DNA from: a virus
Length of the DNA stretch: 64,000 nt
IMG/VR virus record: IMGVR_UViG_3300045988_154953
Direction: 5' to 3' (one strand)
A program made the translations under genes and the position numbers. The first letter of the stretch is position 1. Every line of letters begins with the position of its first letter. Under the pieces are notes generated by a model. The model was not told the DNA's origin. It searched no databases and saw only the letters and a program-made list of their open reading frames with translations. Below, piece after piece: positions 8,548 through 16,229 of the stretch.

Positions 8548-9481
8548 AAGAAAAGGATTAATCGGTGGCGTTGGATTGGCAGTATTAATCATTGGTGGTT
8601 TGTTTGTTGGAATTTCCTGTACAGAGAAAATTCCGGCGGGTTATGTCGGTGTAGTTTATAACTCACTAAACGGTGGTGTTGATGGAGAGGTTATCACACA
8701 GGGATGGCATCTCGTATCACCTACAAAGAAAGTCACTACATATTCAATCGGTATTGAACAGTCTTATCTCACATCAGAAGAGAAAGGTGATTCGCCAGTT
8801 GACGAAAGTTTTTCAACACCAACATCTGACGGTAAATCATTAACAGTTGATTTGGAATTTTCATACAAGTTTGATCAGGATAAGATCGCTGATACATTCA
8901 TAAAATTCAAGGGGCAATCTGGAAACACTGTTAAAGATACATTTATTAAACCTAAGATGAGAGCTTGGACACAGGAAGTTACAGCAAAATATCCTGTTAC
9001 TGATGTTTTTGGTGATAAGAGACAGGAATTAAACGAAGCACTTGATGTGTATCTAAAGCAGAAGTTTGAACCATATGGTATTATTATTGACACTGTGAAC
9101 TTCACAAATATCTCCACTGATTCAGAAACTGCAGAAGCAATTCAGAAGAAAGTTACAGCGCAGCAGGAATTAGAACTGGCAACTATTGAAGCTAAAACAG
9201 CTAAAGTACAGGCAGATAAAGACAAAGAAGTAGCTCTTATTGCAGCTGAACAGGAAAAAGAAAAAGCAGCTATTGTTGCAGAGCAGAAGAAAATTCAGGC
9301 AGAAGGCGAAGCACAGGCTACAAAGATTAAAGCTGATGCAGAAGCAGAAGCAAATGTAAAGATTGCTAAATCACTTACACCGGAGCTGATTGAAAAGCAG
9401 AAGATCGAAAAATGGAATGGTTCTGTTCCTACAGTCCAGGGTAGTTCAACACCTATTGTCAATATGAGTGATGATAAATAG
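8540..9481 (+). CDS. SPFH/band-7 (prohibitin/HflC-like) membrane protein
   Basis: It has an N-terminal TM helix, GYVGVVYNSLNGGV..ITQGWHLVSP typical of SPFH domains, and an Ala/Glu/Lys-rich coiled-coil tail. MAKRKG at 8540 is the likely start; the track starts at 8507. Confidence 0.75.
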   Translation: MAKRKGLIGGVGLAVLIIGGLFVGISCTEKIPAGYVGVVYNSLNGGVDGEVITQGWHLVSPTKKVTTYSIGIEQSYLTSEEKGDSPVDESFSTPTSDGKSLTVDLEFSYKFDQDKIADTFIKFKGQSGNTVKDTFIKPKMRAWTQEVTAKYPVTDVFGDKRQELNEALDVYLKQKFEPYGIIIDTVNFTNISTDSETAEAIQKKVTAQQELELATIEAKTAKVQADKDKEVALIAAEQEKEKAAIVAEQKKIQAEGEAQATKIKADAEAEANVKIAKSLTPELIEKQKIEKWNGSVPTVQGSSTPIVNMSDDK

Positions 9482-9539
9482 TTTTAGAAAACGAATTTGT
9501 TTGGTTATGGATTAAAATTTGATTCATAACCAAACGATA

Positions 9540-9663
9540 AAGTAATCAGTATATTAAGTATTATTACTTGATATCTGCAGGTGATTTTGCACCTGAAAAG
9601 TGAGGTTAATAACACTCACTAAAATCTGTGTAATTAGATTCGAAATGTACATGTGAATTTGAG
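9540..9663 (+). ncRNA. putative tracrRNA-like scaffold, upstream module (U)
   Basis: Stacked hairpins are present: aagtaat/attactt at 9540-9569, caggtg/cacctg at 9578-9595 and gtgag/ctcac at 9600-9619. A 14-nt block cactcactaaaatc (9613-9626) is identical to one in the downstream scaffold. It is followed by an 11-nt anti-repeat tctgtgtaatt (9625-9635). The 5' boundary is uncertain. Confidence 0.5.
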
Positions 9664-9765
9664 GTTTTAGAGATATATTAAATTACATAGATACAAAACT
9701 CATGGACTCTATAAGATAAGTATGGTGTGGTTTTAGAGATATATTAAATTACACAGGTACATAAA
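9664..9765 (+). CRISPR. mini CRISPR array U: 2 repeats, 1 spacer
   Basis: The repeat is GTTTTAGAGATATATTAAATTACATAGATACAAAAC (9664-9699). The second copy (9730-9765) is identical for 24 nt and then degenerate. The spacer is 30 nt (9700-9729) and the period is 66 nt. Confidence 0.6.
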
Positions 9766-9825
9766 TAAGTCTATAGATTTACATAATTATAAAATAATTA
9801 TAAATATGAAGGATAACAAATAGCA

Positions 9826-11556
9826 ATGAATACAATAAAAAATACATATATACGAACATTAAAATTTAATTTAAATTTAACACCAAAATTCGAAACAGAA
9901 GAAGATAATAAAAAATATATAAATGATGTGTATTCATATCTAAGAGATGCTATATGGGCACAAAATAGAGCTATGAATATTGTTCTTGATCGAACTAAAG
10001 AAGCTTATACACTTGGACGAGGGATGAACAGGGTTAAAGAAATATATTATTCATATTCCCATCAAAAACCAATTAGTAATGACAAAAAAGAAAGCTTCTT
10101 AGAATCATTGTTGCAGTATGCACCTATAGACGATCAATTTGTAAAAAATGAAGTTAAAAAATTACGTAAATTCTATGAATCTAAAAAGAAACCACCAAAA
10201 GAAGAAACTGTTTCTAAAAATTGTGAAGCTTTAAAAAATAAGTACATAAAATATGTTGGTAAATCAAAAGATGATGTCAAACGAGAATTAGATTTACTTG
10301 AAAATTATTGTGCATATCCAGAAGATATTTATGAAAAATTTGCTAACGGATTAAGCACACCTGCATATATAAAACAGAAAGTAGAATCTTATTGGAAACA
10401 GGATGGAATAAAAACAAAAGTTATTTACTCGATGGATGAAAATCTCAGACGAATAAAAGATGCTCCATTGTTCATACCACCAAATGTTTTTTACAATAAA
10501 AAAGATGAATTAATCGGTTTGGTATATGATTATACTGACTATATATCTTTTTTAGAAGATTTAGAAAATAAACGAAATGTAAATATATATTTAAGTATTC
10601 CATATAAAAAAGGTGAAGATAAATTAAAATTCAAATTAGTTCTAGGGAATCCACATAAGTCTCGTGATTCTAGATTATCCATAAAAAGAATTTTTGAAGA
10701 AGAATATAGAATTAAAGGCAGCAGTATTGGATTTACGAAGAATAAAGAAACTGGCAAAAATACAAATTTAACTTTATATCTTACTGTTGAAGTCCCACAA
10801 AATAAAGATAATACTCTTGATGAGAATGTAGTTGTTGGAGTAGATGTCGGCATCGCTATTCCATGTGTATGTGCTTTAAATAACGATAAATATACAAGAG
10901 AAAATATTGGAAGTTATGATACTTTATTTGCTAAAAGAACCCAGTTTAAAATGCAGAGAAGTAGATTGAATAGTCAATTAAAATTATCAAAGGGTGGACA
11001 TGGAAGAAAAAGAAAGTTAAAGAAATTAGAATTACTTTCAGGAAAAGAGAAAAATTACGTTGATACAGAATGTAGAAAGTATGCAAGTGATGTAATTAAA
11101 TTTTGTTTAAAACATCATGCTAAATATATTAATTTAGAGCACCTAAAAGGATATCGAGAGAATCCTAAAGTATTAGCTGGATGGAGTTTTTATAAAATCC
11201 AAACATATATTGAACAAGCAGCTGAAAAACATGGAATTATTGTAAGGAAAATTAATCCATGTTATACATCACAGATTTGTAGCGTATGTGGAAATTGGCA
11301 TCCAGAGAATAGACCAAAGGGTAAATTAGGGCAAGCATATTTTAATTGTCATAATATTGATTGTAAAACTCATAATACAGATTTGTATAAATATGGTATT
11401 AATGCAGACTTTAATGCTGCTAGGAATATAGCAATGTCAACATTATTTATTACCGATTCTGATGAGATCACAAAGAAACATTGGAAAGAAGCCAGAGAAT
11501 ATTATGGTATAGATGAATCGGATGATAAAGAAGAAAAATTAAATAAAGTAGCCTAA
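9826..11556 (+). CDS. cas12f: Cas12f (Cas14)-like / TnpB-derived RuvC nuclease, 576 aa
   Basis: The split RuvC triad is intact: VVVGVD340VG, INLE438HL and NAD528FNAARNIA. A zinc ribbon is present (C485xxC488 ... C508x4C513). GHGRKRKLKKL and the motif order are collinear with Cas14a1/Un1Cas12f1 as I recall it. Confidence 0.8.
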   Translation: MNTIKNTYIRTLKFNLNLTPKFETEEDNKKYINDVYSYLRDAIWAQNRAMNIVLDRTKEAYTLGRGMNRVKEIYYSYSHQKPISNDKKESFLESLLQYAPIDDQFVKNEVKKLRKFYESKKKPPKEETVSKNCEALKNKYIKYVGKSKDDVKRELDLLENYCAYPEDIYEKFANGLSTPAYIKQKVESYWKQDGIKTKVIYSMDENLRRIKDAPLFIPPNVFYNKKDELIGLVYDYTDYISFLEDLENKRNVNIYLSIPYKKGEDKLKFKLVLGNPHKSRDSRLSIKRIFEEEYRIKGSSIGFTKNKETGKNTNLTLYLTVEVPQNKDNTLDENVVVGVDVGIAIPCVCALNNDKYTRENIGSYDTLFAKRTQFKMQRSRLNSQLKLSKGGHGRKRKLKKLELLSGKEKNYVDTECRKYASDVIKFCLKHHAKYINLEHLKGYRENPKVLAGWSFYKIQTYIEQAAEKHGIIVRKINPCYTSQICSVCGNWHPENRPKGKLGQAYFNCHNIDCKTHNTDLYKYGINADFNAARNIAMSTLFITDSDEITKKHWKEAREYYGIDESDDKEEKLNKVA

Positions 11557-11713
11557 GTGCTACTAAACCAGTCGAAAGACTGCGGTGTGTTTTGGTGTGT
11601 TTATATAGCCTCAAATATAAACACCGCTATTGTGGATACAATAGTACGCCGAAAGGTGAGGATTCGTCACTCACTAAAATCCATGTTAAAACTTGTATCT
11701 ATGGTAATTTGGG
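11557..11713 (+). ncRNA. putative tracrRNA-like scaffold, downstream module (D)
   Basis: It starts right after the cas stop codon. Hairpins: cagtc-GAAA-gactg (11569-11582), a roughly 10-bp stem at 11597-11624, ctattgt/acaatag (11627-11644), and gtgag..UUCG..ctcac (11656-11674). Then come the conserved cactcactaaaatc (11668-11681) and the anti-repeat tccatgttaaa (11680-11690). Confidence 0.55.
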
Positions 11714-11881
11714 GATTAAGAAGTATATCATTTAACATGGGTACAAAACTCTATAGAGATACACTGTATATTTAGTTATGATTAAGAAGTATATCATTTA
11801 ACATGGGTACAAAACTCAGCACTGCATTTATTTTTAGGCAGGCACGATTAAGAAGTATATCATTTAACACGAATATAAAAA
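11714..11881 (+). CRISPR. mini CRISPR array D: 3 repeats (last one degenerate), 2 spacers
   Basis: The repeat GATTAAGAAGTATATCATTTAACATGGGTACAAAAC occurs at 11714 and 11780, with a degenerate copy at 11846. The period is 66 nt. The 30-nt spacers are at 11750-11779 and 11816-11845. Confidence 0.7.
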
Positions 11882-11899
11882 TGAAACGGAGACAACTAA

Positions 11900-12448
11900 T
11901 TGATTATTATTATTGGTAAAACCGCATCTGGTAAAGACACAATTGTAAAAGAGTTATGTCTAAATCATAATTTCAAAAAGATTGTTACATATACAACCAG
12001 ACCAATGCGAGAAAATGAAATTGATGGCACTACATACCATTATATATCAAATGAAGAATTTAAGGGAAAAATTAATGAAGGATTTTTTGTAGAATATAAA
12101 TCCTACCAATCTGAATTCGGTGAATGGTTCTATGGAACATCTGAAGAGAGCATTCTAAATTCTGATGACAAATCTATTATAATTCTTACACCTCAAGGGT
12201 ACAAAGATATCTTATCTAAATATCCCAATCTTAATTATAAATCCATTTATTTATATGCAAGTAATAGAACAATTAGAAAACGTTTAATACAGCGTGGAGA
12301 CGATGAGGCAGAAGCAAAGCGAAGAGTTAGACATGATAAGAAAGATTTTAGAGGTATTTATAAAATAGTAGATAAAGTTATTTGTAATAATCAAAATAAA
12401 CAATTTGAGAAGGTAATAAAAGAAATATTGGATGTGATTAAAGAATGA
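11900..12448 (+). CDS. gmk: guanylate kinase
   Basis: It has the P-loop GKTASGKDT and TTRPMRENEIDGTTYHYIS. The TTG start lies 7 nt after a GGAGA RBS. Confidence 0.75.
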   Translation: MIIIIGKTASGKDTIVKELCLNHNFKKIVTYTTRPMRENEIDGTTYHYISNEEFKGKINEGFFVEYKSYQSEFGEWFYGTSEESILNSDDKSIIILTPQGYKDILSKYPNLNYKSIYLYASNRTIRKRLIQRGDDEAEAKRRVRHDKKDFRGIYKIVDKVICNNQNKQFEKVIKEILDVIKE

Positions 12449-12930: not shown

Positions 12931-13806
12931 ATGAAAGTAGTCAAGAGAGATTGTACGCTGGTAGATTTTGATAAAAATAAAATTTACACAGCGATAATGA
13001 AAGCGATGAAGGATGGATCAGGAATTGTGAAGCCGAAGGTAGCAGAAGACATCTCAAATGAGATATATGAAATGCACAAAAATGACGATGAAATCGACAT
13101 TTCAACCATCGAATCAGAGGTCTTCGATAAATTGATTACAAAAAAACAAAGACTTACTGCCAGAGCTTATGAAGGATATAGAAGTAAACGAGAGCTGCAA
13201 CGAGAATATAACACTATAGATGATGAAATAATCGGCCTTGTCGAAGATAAAAATGAATATTGGAAAGATGAAAATGCAAACAAAAATCCAATATTAAATC
13301 CAACGAAAAGAGATTATATTGCCGGTTCAGTAAGTACAGATGCAACAAAAAGATATTTATTATCACCAGAAATAGTACAAGCTCATATGGATGGTATTAT
13401 TCACTTTCATGATGCAGATTATTTTATTCAACATATGCATAATTGTGATCTAGTTAATCTTGAAGATATGTTACAAAATAACACTGTAATTAGTGGAGTA
13501 TTAATTGAAAAACCACATTCTTTTTCTACTGCTTGTAATATAGCTACACAAGCCATTTCACAAATAGCAAGTAATCAATATGGGGGTCAAAGTGTTTCTT
13601 TGGCACATCTCGCTCCTTTCGTAGATATTTCAAGACAAAAAATAAGAGAAGAATTAGTAGAAGAATTTTCTTTATTGGGTTTCTCTAAGGGTGGAATTAT
13701 AGACGAAGATTTTAATGCAGTTGTAGAAAAACGTTTAAAGAAAGAAATTGAAAAAGGTGTTCAGACTATTCAATATCAATTAGTTACACTTATGACAACA
13801 AACGGT
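12931..13806 (+). CDS. nrdD: anaerobic ribonucleoside-triphosphate reductase, exon 1 (ATP-cone and N-terminal part)
   Basis: MKVVKRDCTLVDFDKNKIYTAIMKA is an ATP-cone. The ORF ends ..LMTTNG, directly before an intron-like sequence. Confidence 0.85.
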
Positions 13807-14861
13807 TAATTTTGGCTGTTGTAAAATCTTGTGAACCATGCCAATGGGTGTCTAATAAATTAGGCTAACGGTCAACTAACCTCAAGGGTAAGGTGGTAAG
13901 AGAACCTAAGTCCTGTAATAAGGATATGGTAATACCGTGTTAAGCGTTTTGTTTATAAAAATAAAAAAAGAAAGGGGGGGAATGAAAAATGTATGGATAT
14001 ATATATTTAACTACAAATCTAATCAACGATCGAAAATATATAGGAAAACATAAAAGTGAATTTTATGACGATAAATATTATGGGAGTGGAAAGATTCTTT
14101 TGCAGGCTATATCAAAATATGGTATTGAAAATTTTACGAATGAAATATTATACGAAGCGGATTACGCAGAAGAATTAAATAAAAAAGAAAAAGAATATAT
14201 TTCATTATATAGAGGAAAATATGGAAAACAAATGTATAATATAGCGTCTGGAGGAGACGGGGGAGATACATACTCATCTAAATCTGAAGAAGAAAAAGAA
14301 GATTTTGTTAAGAAAATGGAGAAAATAAATAGAGACAGATGTTCTTCGAAAGAATTTAAGATACAAGCTTCTGAACGTTTAACTAAAAAATATTCCAACA
14401 TTGAAGAAAGAAAATTACAATCCGAAAGAATTAAAAAAGCTTGGGATAATGAGCAATTAAAGGAAGATCAGAGCGAGCGATTAAAAAATTATTATAAAAC
14501 ACATAAAAAAGAAAATTCATATAATAACATTCCATGTGGGATTAAATTTAATGGGGTAAAATATGAATTTGAAAGTGTTAAGCAATTAAAAAAATTCATA
14601 AAAGAAGAGTTTAATTTTGTCCCAGGAAATTCAAAGATAAAACAGATGATGATTGATGGGACTAATGGTATTCCATATGTTTCTTTCTTTAAAAAATACA
14701 GTAATTTGAATGGCGCGTTACTTTATTATAAACAAAACGAAAATGTAGAGACTATGGGTGATGAATGTAGCCCAGTAGAGCATGAGATAGGCACATGCTC
14801 CAAGTGCAAGACTGAAATAGAAGAGATAGTCCGCTCTGCATAGAAATATGCAGATGGGGTG
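13807..14861 (+). mobile_element. group I intron in nrdD carrying a GIY-YIG homing endonuclease gene
   Basis: The last exon nt is T (ggT|taatttt) and the last intron nt is G (ggggtG|caagcc). Joining gives ..TTNG|QAPFITIF.. in frame. Structured GC-richer segments flank the ORF. Confidence 0.8.
13989..14843 (+). CDS. GIY-YIG homing endonuclease (intron-encoded)
   Basis: MYGYIYLTTNLINDRKYIGKH..YYGSG is the GIY-YIG motif. The gene lies inside the nrdD interruption. Confidence 0.85.
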   Translation: MYGYIYLTTNLINDRKYIGKHKSEFYDDKYYGSGKILLQAISKYGIENFTNEILYEADYAEELNKKEKEYISLYRGKYGKQMYNIASGGDGGDTYSSKSEEEKEDFVKKMEKINRDRCSSKEFKIQASERLTKKYSNIEERKLQSERIKKAWDNEQLKEDQSERLKNYYKTHKKENSYNNIPCGIKFNGVKYEFESVKQLKKFIKEEFNFVPGNSKIKQMMIDGTNGIPYVSFFKKYSNLNGALLYYKQNENVETMGDECSPVEHEIGTCSKCKTEIEEIVRSA

Positions 14862-16229
14862 CAAGCCCCTTTTATTACAATTTTCATGTATCTTAATGAA
14901 GCCAAAAACGAACAAGAAAAACACGATTTAGCTTTATTAATCGAAGAAATGCTTCATCAAAGAATCAAAGGAGTAAAAAATAAAGAAGGAGTTTATGTAG
15001 CACCTGCATTTCCTAAACTAATTTATGTTTTGGAAGAAGATAATATTCATGAAGATTCAAAATATTGGTATTTGACAAAATTAGCTGCGGAGTGTTCTTC
15101 TAAACGTTTAGTTCCAGATTATATTTCAGAAAAAATTATGCTTGAAACAAAAGGTGATGTATACACCTGTATGGGATGTAGATCATTTTTAACAGTAGAT
15201 AGATTTTCTGATAAAGTTTCTAACATTGCCAATGCGAAAAATTACGAACCTGACAAACACAAATATTACGGACGCTTCAATCAAGGTGTAGTTACACTTT
15301 CACTACCAGATATTGCTTTATCTTCAGAAGGTGATTTCGATACATTTTGGAAAATTTTTGAAGAAAGAACTGAATTGTGTCATAAAGCACTTAGAATCAG
15401 ACATGAAAGATTGCGCGGTACATTATCTGATGTTGCTCCTATATTGTGGCAAGATGGTGCTCTTGCTCGATTAAAAGAACATGAAAAAATCGATAAACTT
15501 CTTTATGATGGTTATTCAACTATATCTTTGGGATATGCCGGTTTATATGAATGTGTAAAATATATGACTGGACATTCTCATTCTGATGAAGGTATTGGCG
15601 AAGAGTTTGGATTAAAAGTTATGCAAGCTCTTAATGATAAGTGTGCTCAGTGGAAAAATGCTGAAAATATAGATTATAGTTTGTATGGTACGCCTCTCGA
15701 AAGTACAACGTATAAATTTGCAAAATGCTTAAAGGCTCGTTTTGGTAAAGATGTATTTATTAGATTGGATGGATTTGATAGAAATTATATAACTAATTCA
15801 TATCATATTCCAGTGTTTGAGCCAATTACAGCGTTTGAAAAACTTAGAATAGAAGCAAAATTCCAATTATTAAGTCCTGGTGGAGCCATTTCTTATGTAG
15901 AAGTACCAAGCATGTCTCATAATATTAATGCTTTGATCGAAGTTATCAAATTCATTTACTATCACATTCAGTATGCAGAAATTAATACTAAAAGTTGCTA
16001 CTGTGAAAAATGTGGCTATGATGGAGATATTCCTCTTGTACTAGATGAAAATGGTAAATATAGATGGGAGTGTCCACAATGTGGCAATATAGATAATACT
16101 ACCATGGATATTGCTTTTAGAGTCTGTGGTTACATTGGTACTGCAAAAAATGGTGGTAATCAAGGACGATATGGTGATGTACATGATCGTGTATATCACT
16201 TAGATGATATAGAATATAATGAGAAATAG
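14862..16229 (+). CDS. nrdD: anaerobic ribonucleoside-triphosphate reductase, exon 2 (C-terminal part with glycyl-radical site)
   Basis: It begins QAPFITIF. It contains the C-terminal Zn site CEKCG..CPQCG and the glycyl radical motif RVCGYIG. Confidence 0.85.
   Translation, partial: QAPFITIFMYLNEAKNEQEKHDLALLIEEMLHQRIKGVKNKEGVYVAPAFPKLIYVLEEDNIHEDSKYWYLTKLAAECSSKRLVPDYISEKIMLETKGDVYTCMGCRSFLTVDRFSDKVSNIANAKNYEPDKHKYYGRFNQGVVTLSLPDIALSSEGDFDTFWKIFEERTELCHKALRIRHERLRGTLSDVAPILWQDGALARLKEHEKIDKLLYDGYSTISLGYAGLYECVKYMTGHSHSDEGIGEEFGLKVMQALNDKCAQWKNAENIDYSLYGTPLESTTYKFAKCLKARFGKDVFIRLDGFDRNYITNSYHIPVFEPITAFEKLRIEAKFQLLSPGGAISYVEVPSMSHNINALIEVIKFIYYHIQYAEINTKSCYCEKCGYDGDIPLVLDENGKYRWECPQCGNIDNTTMDIAFRVCGYIGTAKNGGNQGRYGDVHDRVYHLDDIEYNEK

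Follow-up and report, generated by a model that had tools for sequence, protein, structure and literature searches.

The DNA considered here, a 64,000-nucleotide stretch of IMG/VR virus record IMGVR_UViG_3300045988_154953 (hereafter the window), very probably carries a phage-borne type V-F CRISPR system. A single Cas12f1-like effector would use two guide-RNA modules lying on one strand, each with a scaffold resembling a trans-activating CRISPR RNA (tracrRNA) in the leader of a mini-array. The modules, U upstream and D downstream of the effector gene (Table 1), share one order: a 6-bp helix (P1), a 4-nt A-rich junction, a bulged hairpin (HP2), a TAAAA linker, the anti-repeat and then the mini-array. 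In both arrays, which run on the plus strand, spacers of 30 nt separate repeats of 36 nt, the last of which is degenerate. The window is phage DNA, encoding tail fibres, NrdD, nicotinamide phosphoribosyltransferase and guanylate kinase.

A preliminary description of this DNA had proposed compensatory changes in anti-repeat and repeat between one module and the other, and nearly all of its particulars hold. The motif GAAA(A/G)GTGAGG occurs in both scaffolds (GAAAAGTGAGG at 9595-9605, GAAAGGTGAGG at 11651-11661), and the scaffolds share an identical 14-nt block (CACTCACTAAAATC; 9613-9626 in U, 11668-11681 in D). Both also retain the stem GTGAGG/C(A)CTCAC and its bulged A, whereas the apex is AAT in U and TTCG in D. 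The 11-nt anti-repeats (TCTGTGTAATT, 9625-9635; TCCATGTTAAA, 11680-11690) are complementary to their repeats as claimed, but they were said to follow the identical block and in fact overlap it by 2 nt. Each pairs with positions 18-28 of its own repeat (AATTACATAGA, 9681-9691; TTTAACATGGG, 11731-11741) through 10 Watson-Crick pairs and one G-U pair, and an extra A-U pair (9624 with 9692; 11679 with 11742) lengthens both duplexes to 12 bp. Between U and D, four pairs are altered on both sides with pairing preserved (one U-A to C-G change and three A-U/U-A swaps), and two one-sided changes are still compatible with pairing (U-A to U-G; G-U to A-U). Pairing at 11 of 11 positions with each repeat segment was found for one of the 63,989 plus-strand 11-mers in the window, namely the anti-repeat itself. 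Runs of 12 bp in any register appear in 0.9-1.6% of shuffles of each leader; the observed runs occupy the same register in both modules. Mixed partners pair more weakly, with 8/11 pairs for the U anti-repeat on the D repeat and 7/11 for the converse. The HP2 motif occurs twice in the 64 kb, both times at the modules. Folding, a check put forward with the original proposal, recovers P1 and HP2 in both scaffolds (-20.4 kcal/mol, z = -3.24 for U; -37.2 kcal/mol, z = -2.45 for D).

The same arrangement recurs widely. Relatives of the effector number 437 at E <= 1e-10, and ∼170 loci were collected from metagenomes and IMG/VR viral contigs (roughly 50-230 kb), mostly gut phage. Scaffold and mini-array modules are found in almost all of these loci, 166 distinct modules were extracted, and the layout up- and downstream of the gene is retained in relatives at 38-99% identity. 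Of the 143 loci that include both flanks, 16 have no array, 43 have one, 66 have two, 17 have three and one has five; at least one array lies beside the effector in 127, at least two are present in 84, and the gene is flanked on both sides in 66. The scaffold precedes the first repeat by 17-63 nt in most modules, on the same strand, and 130 of 163 arrays hold two or three repeats. Short scaffolds with a 6-nt P1 loop (84 of 145 modules) and long ones with 32-61 nt inserted (61 of 145) each occur both up- and downstream of the gene; in the window, U is short (∼58 nt, 9578-9635) and D is long (∼110 nt, 11583-11690). Among 185,579 species genomes, the best effector relatives are 36-43% identical and come from Firmicutes (Anaerotignum, an Erysipelotrichaceae bacterium and Pseudobutyrivibrio). 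Firmicutes contigs carry scaffold and array downstream of the gene (L173 2990-3400, L174 1300-1600, L175 3140-3480); their repeats differ, with anti-repeat and loop altered to match, as for the Anaerotignum loop TTTCA and repeat end TGAAA. In the upstream module of locus L004 (2850-2990), the scaffold is accompanied by a single repeat, and the spacer position is taken by the upstream and ribosome-binding region of that locus's own cas12f-like gene. This module could represent a lone repeat unit that functions in regulation.

Pairing between anti-repeat and repeat was scored in an alignment (A2) of 126 modules in fixed register, with segments joined by artificial GCGCGC spacers. The anti-repeat register was the last GT 6-13 nt past the hairpin and the repeat register was the repeat consensus, neither of which uses the partner. 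A few anti-repeats mis-anchored by the GT rule (e.g. L003_2860) were kept, and their effect runs counter to the hypothesis. Across 125 distinct modules, 85-100% have a pair at each of repeat positions 20-29, and the columns show several pair types each. In A2, 88.3% of cells are paired versus 77.0% after shuffling, and the covariation score is 0.377 versus 0.172; 0/500 shuffles were as high on either measure. Slid controls gave 26-47% paired cells and covariation scores of 0.05-0.08. Two-sided changes are seen at 8 of the 12 pairs of the anti-repeat helix. Each anti-repeat also prefers its own partner: cognate combinations form 7.39 of 9 variable pairs, a mean reached by 0/5000 permutations, and non-cognate ones 6.06. 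In comparisons within a locus, 59 favour the own repeat over the sibling, 6 favour the sibling and 17 are ties. Within the duplex, wobble pairs are far commoner than A-C combinations (122 G-U/U-G versus 12 A-C/C-A), an excess that argues for selection on plus-strand RNA.

This last asymmetry bears directly on the idea that the complementarity is a DNA-level by-product, for example an inverted repeat fragment left by recombination or module duplication. Such a fragment would likewise be complementary, and some D-type leaders do hold a second repeat-complementary stretch like GTATCTATGG. However, a tenfold excess of G-U over A-C would not arise from a strand-symmetric DNA process, the pairing survives many independent two-sided changes in a fixed register beside a conserved structured scaffold, and the adjoining nuclease belongs to a family that needs a tracrRNA. 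We therefore regard a DNA-level origin as scarcely credible. Loss of the pairing in homologous loci had been named beforehand as the outcome that would count against a functional duplex; the reverse was found, with pairing kept through two-sided changes. The earlier reading of a functional duplex between tracrRNA and CRISPR RNA (crRNA) thus gains support from family covariation, cognate preference, G-U excess and the adjoining Cas12f1-type gene, and we take it to be probably correct.

A second contact emerges at the 3′ end of the repeat, where the P1-loop motif covaries with the terminal bases. Loop and repeat-end classes correspond one to one: the window has the combination TTTTG/CAAAA, and relatives have TTCAG/CTGAA, TTTCG/CGAAA, TTTGG/CCAAA, TTTGA/TCAAA, TTTTA/TAAAA and CTTTG/CAAAG. 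In A2, 95.6% of the cells of this pseudoknot helix are paired, and two-sided changes occur at three of its five pairs. The registers of this helix and of the anti-repeat, and of no other element, were set independently of the partner. The P1 arms also vary jointly (CAGGTG/CACCTG, CGGTGT/ACGCCG, TGGCAT/ATGCCA, TGGTAA/TTACCA and others). According to 10.1101/2025.01.20.633832, Cas12 tracrRNAs typically pair with the repeat 3′ end as a pseudoknot. The loop:repeat-end helix of the window corresponds to this R:AR-1 pseudoknot of Cas12 guide RNAs.

By sequence and predicted fold, the 576-amino acid (aa) protein encoded between U and D is a nuclease of the Cas12f1 type, and CnCas12f1 comes closest to it. 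It matches the NCBIfam models guided_TnpB (2e-36) and Cas12f2 (5e-24), the Pfam Cas12f1-like TNB domain, and the PADLOC models Cas12u3 (1e-74) and Cas12f (3e-70). CnCas12f1 (8HR5) is the top solved-structure match (3e-47 with the protein alone, 5e-90 with a family profile), ahead of Al3Cas12f/Cas12f-MG119, AsCas12f and Un1Cas12f1; each Protein Data Bank (PDB) entry matched contains two chain copies. An AlphaFold model (mean predicted local distance difference test score, pLDDT, 82.5) again placed 8HR5 at rank 1 in Foldseek (8e-24), followed exclusively by other Cas12f structures. RuvC residues D340, E438 and D528 and the zinc-finger (CxxC) cysteines are unchanged in 17 of 17 effector relatives, and residues 1 to ∼250 show no sequence alignment to any solved Cas12f. 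The Cas12f family is tracrRNA-dependent. Rfam gave nothing at gathering score in the window and nothing in 9400-12000 at E up to 10, and the tRNA search found none in the window. GenBank phages gave no DNA match to the window and distant protein matches only.

Taken together, these observations suggest how the system would work. Two contacts would join the scaffold to the crRNA portion that derives from the repeat. One would be a 10-12-bp duplex of anti-repeat and repeat (repeat positions 18-29), and the other a 5-6-bp pseudoknot-like helix between the P1-loop (A/G)UUUUG and the terminal repeat bases CAAAAC beside the spacer. The protein would read the conserved bulged hairpin GUGAGG..C(A)CUCAC and the overall geometry. 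Duplex sequences could then drift as long as both partners change together, and such paired drift would give the compensatory differences between U and D and leave each anti-repeat fitting its own repeat best. One small effector thus appears, from these sequence patterns, to be served by several co-evolving, partly incompatible tracrRNA-repeat pairs. From the same model we infer scaffold transcription, DNA cleavage and a protospacer-adjacent motif (PAM).

Several points weigh against this picture. The search that located P1 and HP2 required pairing, so their paired percentages are partly built in, including the 99% of HP2 cells paired over 126 modules. The modules share kinship, so the shuffle counts given above are not probabilities. 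The anti-repeat tracrRNA by which a type V-F locus is recognized is seen here as sequence and covariation only. The U scaffold is without the two hairpins found in D, and one protein would presumably have to load both a short and a long form. A scan for sigma-70 promoters and terminators gave counts no higher than shuffled sequence and is therefore uninformative on where scaffold RNAs start and end. A duplex of 10-12 bp is short for RNase III processing, which leaves maturation unexplained. Finally, the three window spacers are without an exact 22-nt match in IMG/VR.

How the scaffold meets the repeat is a separate question, on which the pairing evidence does not separate action in cis from action in trans. 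The scaffold could be the 5′ part of the array transcript and pair in cis with the first repeat, with no separate trans-acting tracrRNA. The leader-proximal spacer would then have a natural single guide resembling an omega RNA, and later spacers would be poorly served or be served by the same RNA after cleavage. We consider this arrangement possible but doubtful. It accords with a scaffold on the array strand, 17-63 nt before the first repeat in most modules, and with the absence of a separate promoter or terminator between scaffold and array in the scan. The D scaffold also opens right behind the stop codon, at the site of the TnpB omega RNA, and the arrays are tiny, mostly of two or three repeats, with a single repeat in the L004 module. 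Yet some arrays keep 3-6 repeats, the internal ones intact and identical, as expected if every array unit is used.

A further alternative to one effector with two working modules is that only one module of the window works and that short U is a decaying remnant. U has one spacer and a degenerate second repeat, and is without the two P1-enclosed hairpins of D. In L015, a relative at 99% identity, the end of the first U repeat is TCAAAC and the loop TTTTG is unchanged, which breaks one pseudoknot pair. However, the short form is the majority form, occurs on both sides of the gene and has the same anti-repeat and pseudoknot covariation as the long one. Moreover, the U leader keeps an exact ATTTGAG, and the U spacers of the window and L015 differ, which points to recent acquisition. 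Decay of U is thus unlikely.

Table 1. Features of the effector gene and the two guide-RNA modules in the window
Feature	Position	Strand	Basis or remarks
U scaffold helix P1, CAGGTG/CACCTG	9578..9595	+	Folding; P1 arms covary across modules
U P1 loop ATTTTG, 6 nt	9584-9589	+	Pseudoknot partner of repeat 3′ end; covaries
U junction AAAA, 4 nt	9596-9599	+	Directly 5′ of HP2
U HP2, GTGAGGTT-AAT-AAC(A)CTCAC, bulged A	9600..9619	+	Sequence, folding
U anti-repeat ATCTGTGTAATT	9624..9635	+	Pairs with repeat positions 29-18
U leader end ATTTGAG	9657..9663	+	Immediately 5′ of first U repeat
U mini-array	9664..9765	+	Repeat 1 9664-9699; spacer 9700-9729; degenerate terminal repeat 9730-9765
U repeat 1 segments	Pairing 9681-9692; pseudoknot CAAAA 9694-9698	+	
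cas12f1-like effector gene	9826..11556	+	576 aa; between U and D modules
D scaffold, long form	11569..11655	+	Opens with hairpin CAGTCGAAAGACTG (11569-11582); folding
D P1, CGGTGT/ACGCCG	11583-11588 / 11646-11651	+	Encloses GTTTTG and two extra hairpins
D pseudoknot motif GTTTTG	11589-11594	+	Inside P1
D junction AAAG	11652-11655	+	
D HP2, GTGAGGA-TTCG-TC(A)CTCAC	11656..11674	+	Sequence, folding
D anti-repeat ATCCATGTTAAA	11679..11690	+	Pairs with repeat positions 29-18 (11742-11731)
D leader end ATTTGGG	11707-11713	+	Variant of ATTTGAG
D mini-array repeats	11714-11749, 11780-11815, 11846-11881	+	Array 11714..11881; last repeat degenerate
D spacers	11750-11779, 11816-11845	+	

Two further observations concern the module sequences themselves. 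Between the D anti-repeat and the leader end lies GTATCTATGG (11695-11704), a second stretch complementary to repeat positions 23-33, G-U pairs included, whose target overlaps the segment bound by the main D anti-repeat. Similar motifs occur in 15 of 145 modules, mostly downstream ones, and with so limited a distribution this stretch was set aside as a core structure. All three window spacers (9700, 11750 and 11816) start with TC, which is why a repeat finder reports a 38-nt repeat. This start is not common to the spacers of relatives, and may be chance or a local acquisition bias.

The leaders and spacers bear signs of use. TTTGAG stands immediately before 83 of 142 distinct first repeats and before 0 of 280 later ones. 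The 36-nt repeats start with GTTTTAGA, end with CAAAAC and are separated by spacers of ∼30 nt; positions 1-8 are conserved and unpaired with the scaffold, and positions 9-16 are nearly free. ATTTGAG/GTTT is the leader-repeat junction of type II-A Group 1 arrays (PMC5382924; PMC4330368), where it is required for spacer integration (PMC5382924). An interpretation of ATTTGAG as a Bacteroidetes -7 promoter box (TAnnTTTG) was dropped, as the window leaders do not fit it. Near-identical phages (L009, L017 and L018 upstream; the window, L015 and L020 downstream) differ in their leader-proximal or in all spacers, with the degenerate terminal repeat unchanged. For example, the window, L015 and L020 have effectors that are 97-99% identical and no spacers in common, and, in another clade, L018 has a new leader-proximal spacer before the one that is first in L009. 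By comparison of these sequences, such differences indicate recent, polarized acquisition. A spacer of L157 (at 3067) matches the cas12f-like gene of other phages (L060 1260-1287, L139/L063 1946-1975 and others) at 27-30 of 30 positions in full-length matches. The 5′ flank of these targets, one protospacer family matched by a relative's spacer, is TTTG. Such matches suggest that rival phages target one another's nuclease genes.

The source of new spacers invites a tentative proposal, which we hold to be rather improbable: the phage arrays may be built for filling by the type II-A adaptation machinery of the host. Adaptation genes cas1, cas2 and cas4 are present in only some V-F loci. In the window, they are absent from the PADLOC families listed for 53 open reading frames (ORFs) of 75-900 aa, and none was found among neighbour genes in related loci; PADLOC likewise detected no cas9 or csn2 in the window. 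Under this proposal, the ATTTGAG/GTTT junction, the II-A-like repeat ends and the 30-nt spacers would serve host II-A spacer acquisition, and the repeat 3′ half and leader-embedded scaffold would work with the Cas12f that the phage itself encodes. Weapon and guide scaffold would belong to the phage, and spacer acquisition would be borrowed from the host. A less likely extension is that the repeat 5′ half also pairs with the tracrRNA of a host Cas9, with one spacer arming both nucleases. The combination of a II-A-type junction, rapid polarized spacer turnover and no cas1 or cas2 in the window makes a testable case for host-borrowed acquisition.

Elsewhere in the window, an anaerobic ribonucleotide reductase is apparently split (12931-16229). 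One ORF spans 12931-13809, another, at 14859-16229, covers the NrdD C-terminal part (profile positions 294-715), and a 284-aa ORF (13989-14843) separates the two. PADLOC also reported homing-endonuclease families in the window. Further single-ORF matches among the 53 ORFs are NsnA (1.5e-24), Csx1 labelled 'found elsewhere' (3e-17), DarG (1.6e-16) and HEC-09 (5e-14).

Pairing of a tracrRNA with the repeat is established biology for Cas12f. The main gain here is a well-supported guide-RNA model for a large, uncharacterized phage-borne Cas12f1 branch, with hundreds of gut-virome loci and no close relative in the 185,579 species genomes. Beyond known V-F loci, this branch would add several co-evolving modules per effector in short and long forms, a II-A-type junction, and fast spacer turnover with no cas1 or cas2 found in 64 kb. 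The co-evolving pairs offer natural evidence on which guide parts the protein reads (bulged hairpin, junction and geometry) and which are free. The natural short scaffold of ∼58 nt would also be of interest where long Cas12f guide RNAs are to be trimmed for genome editing.

Among known systems, the closest is type V-F1 Cas12f, of which the window system is, on its sequence, a member. It shares a miniature RuvC and zinc-finger effector, by sequence and fold, and a structured tracrRNA that forms an anti-repeat duplex and a short helix at the repeat 3′ end (R:AR-1/pseudoknot, R:AR-2). Traits of type V-F in general also include an effector homodimer on one guide RNA and a 5′ T-rich or C-rich PAM. 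Unlike in described V-F loci, the 576-aa effector is phage-encoded, and at least two cognate tracrRNA-array modules per effector replace one tracrRNA and one array; literature searches turned up no account of several tracrRNA modules for one effector. The scaffold is also embedded in the array leader on the same strand and has a short form of ∼58 nt. Unlike in some V-F loci, cas1, cas2 and cas4 were not found among the 53 scanned ORFs.

Cas12p, the 'Cas12 hacker', is likewise phage-borne and tracrRNA-dependent, with a repeat-end pseudoknot; its protein has a thioredoxin-binding domain. The accessible text of 10.1101/2025.01.20.633832 (PDB 9JFS) gives it 500-700 aa, a ∼37-nt repeat and a conserved AAAC:UUUG pseudoknot, has it act with thioredoxin as a monomer by its authors' account, and describes no multiple modules. 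The shared AAAC:UUUG pseudoknot suggested identity with Cas12p, which was rejected: 9JFS is not among the sequence matches at E up to 10, and by fold it ranks 23rd, with 13% identity and a template modelling (TM) score of 0.27-0.29.

Resemblance also extends to TnpB with its omega RNA (reRNA) and to TranC intermediates. The effector matches the guided_TnpB model, the D scaffold starts at the omega RNA position right behind the stop codon, and a scaffold followed by repeat and guide resembles a split omega RNA. Such splitting is a proposed origin of tracrRNA and crRNA, as cited in 10.64898/2026.03.27.714800. A TnpB element has one omega RNA with a single guide within a transposon, often accompanied by TnpA. 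The window family instead has true arrays (repeats of 36 nt, spacers of ∼30 nt) whose spacers turn over, and is thus not a plain TnpB element. No TnpA was seen among the neighbouring genes, and transposon ends were not searched for.

Type II-A arrays share the ATTTGAG/GTTT junction, 36-nt repeats of the form GTTTTAGA...CAAAAC and ∼30-nt spacers. In contrast, the effector here is Cas12f rather than Cas9, the window yielded none of cas9, cas1, cas2 and csn2, and the repeats have an unrelated interior and pair through their 3′ half with a Cas12f-type scaffold. Finally, viral mini-arrays used in inter-virus conflicts (reviewed in PMC11656645) resemble the present ones in carrying 1-5 spacers on viral genomes, with at least one spacer here that targets related phages. 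Classical mini-arrays have repeats identical to those of the host CRISPR system and use the effector of the host, whereas this phage brings its own effector and tracrRNAs.

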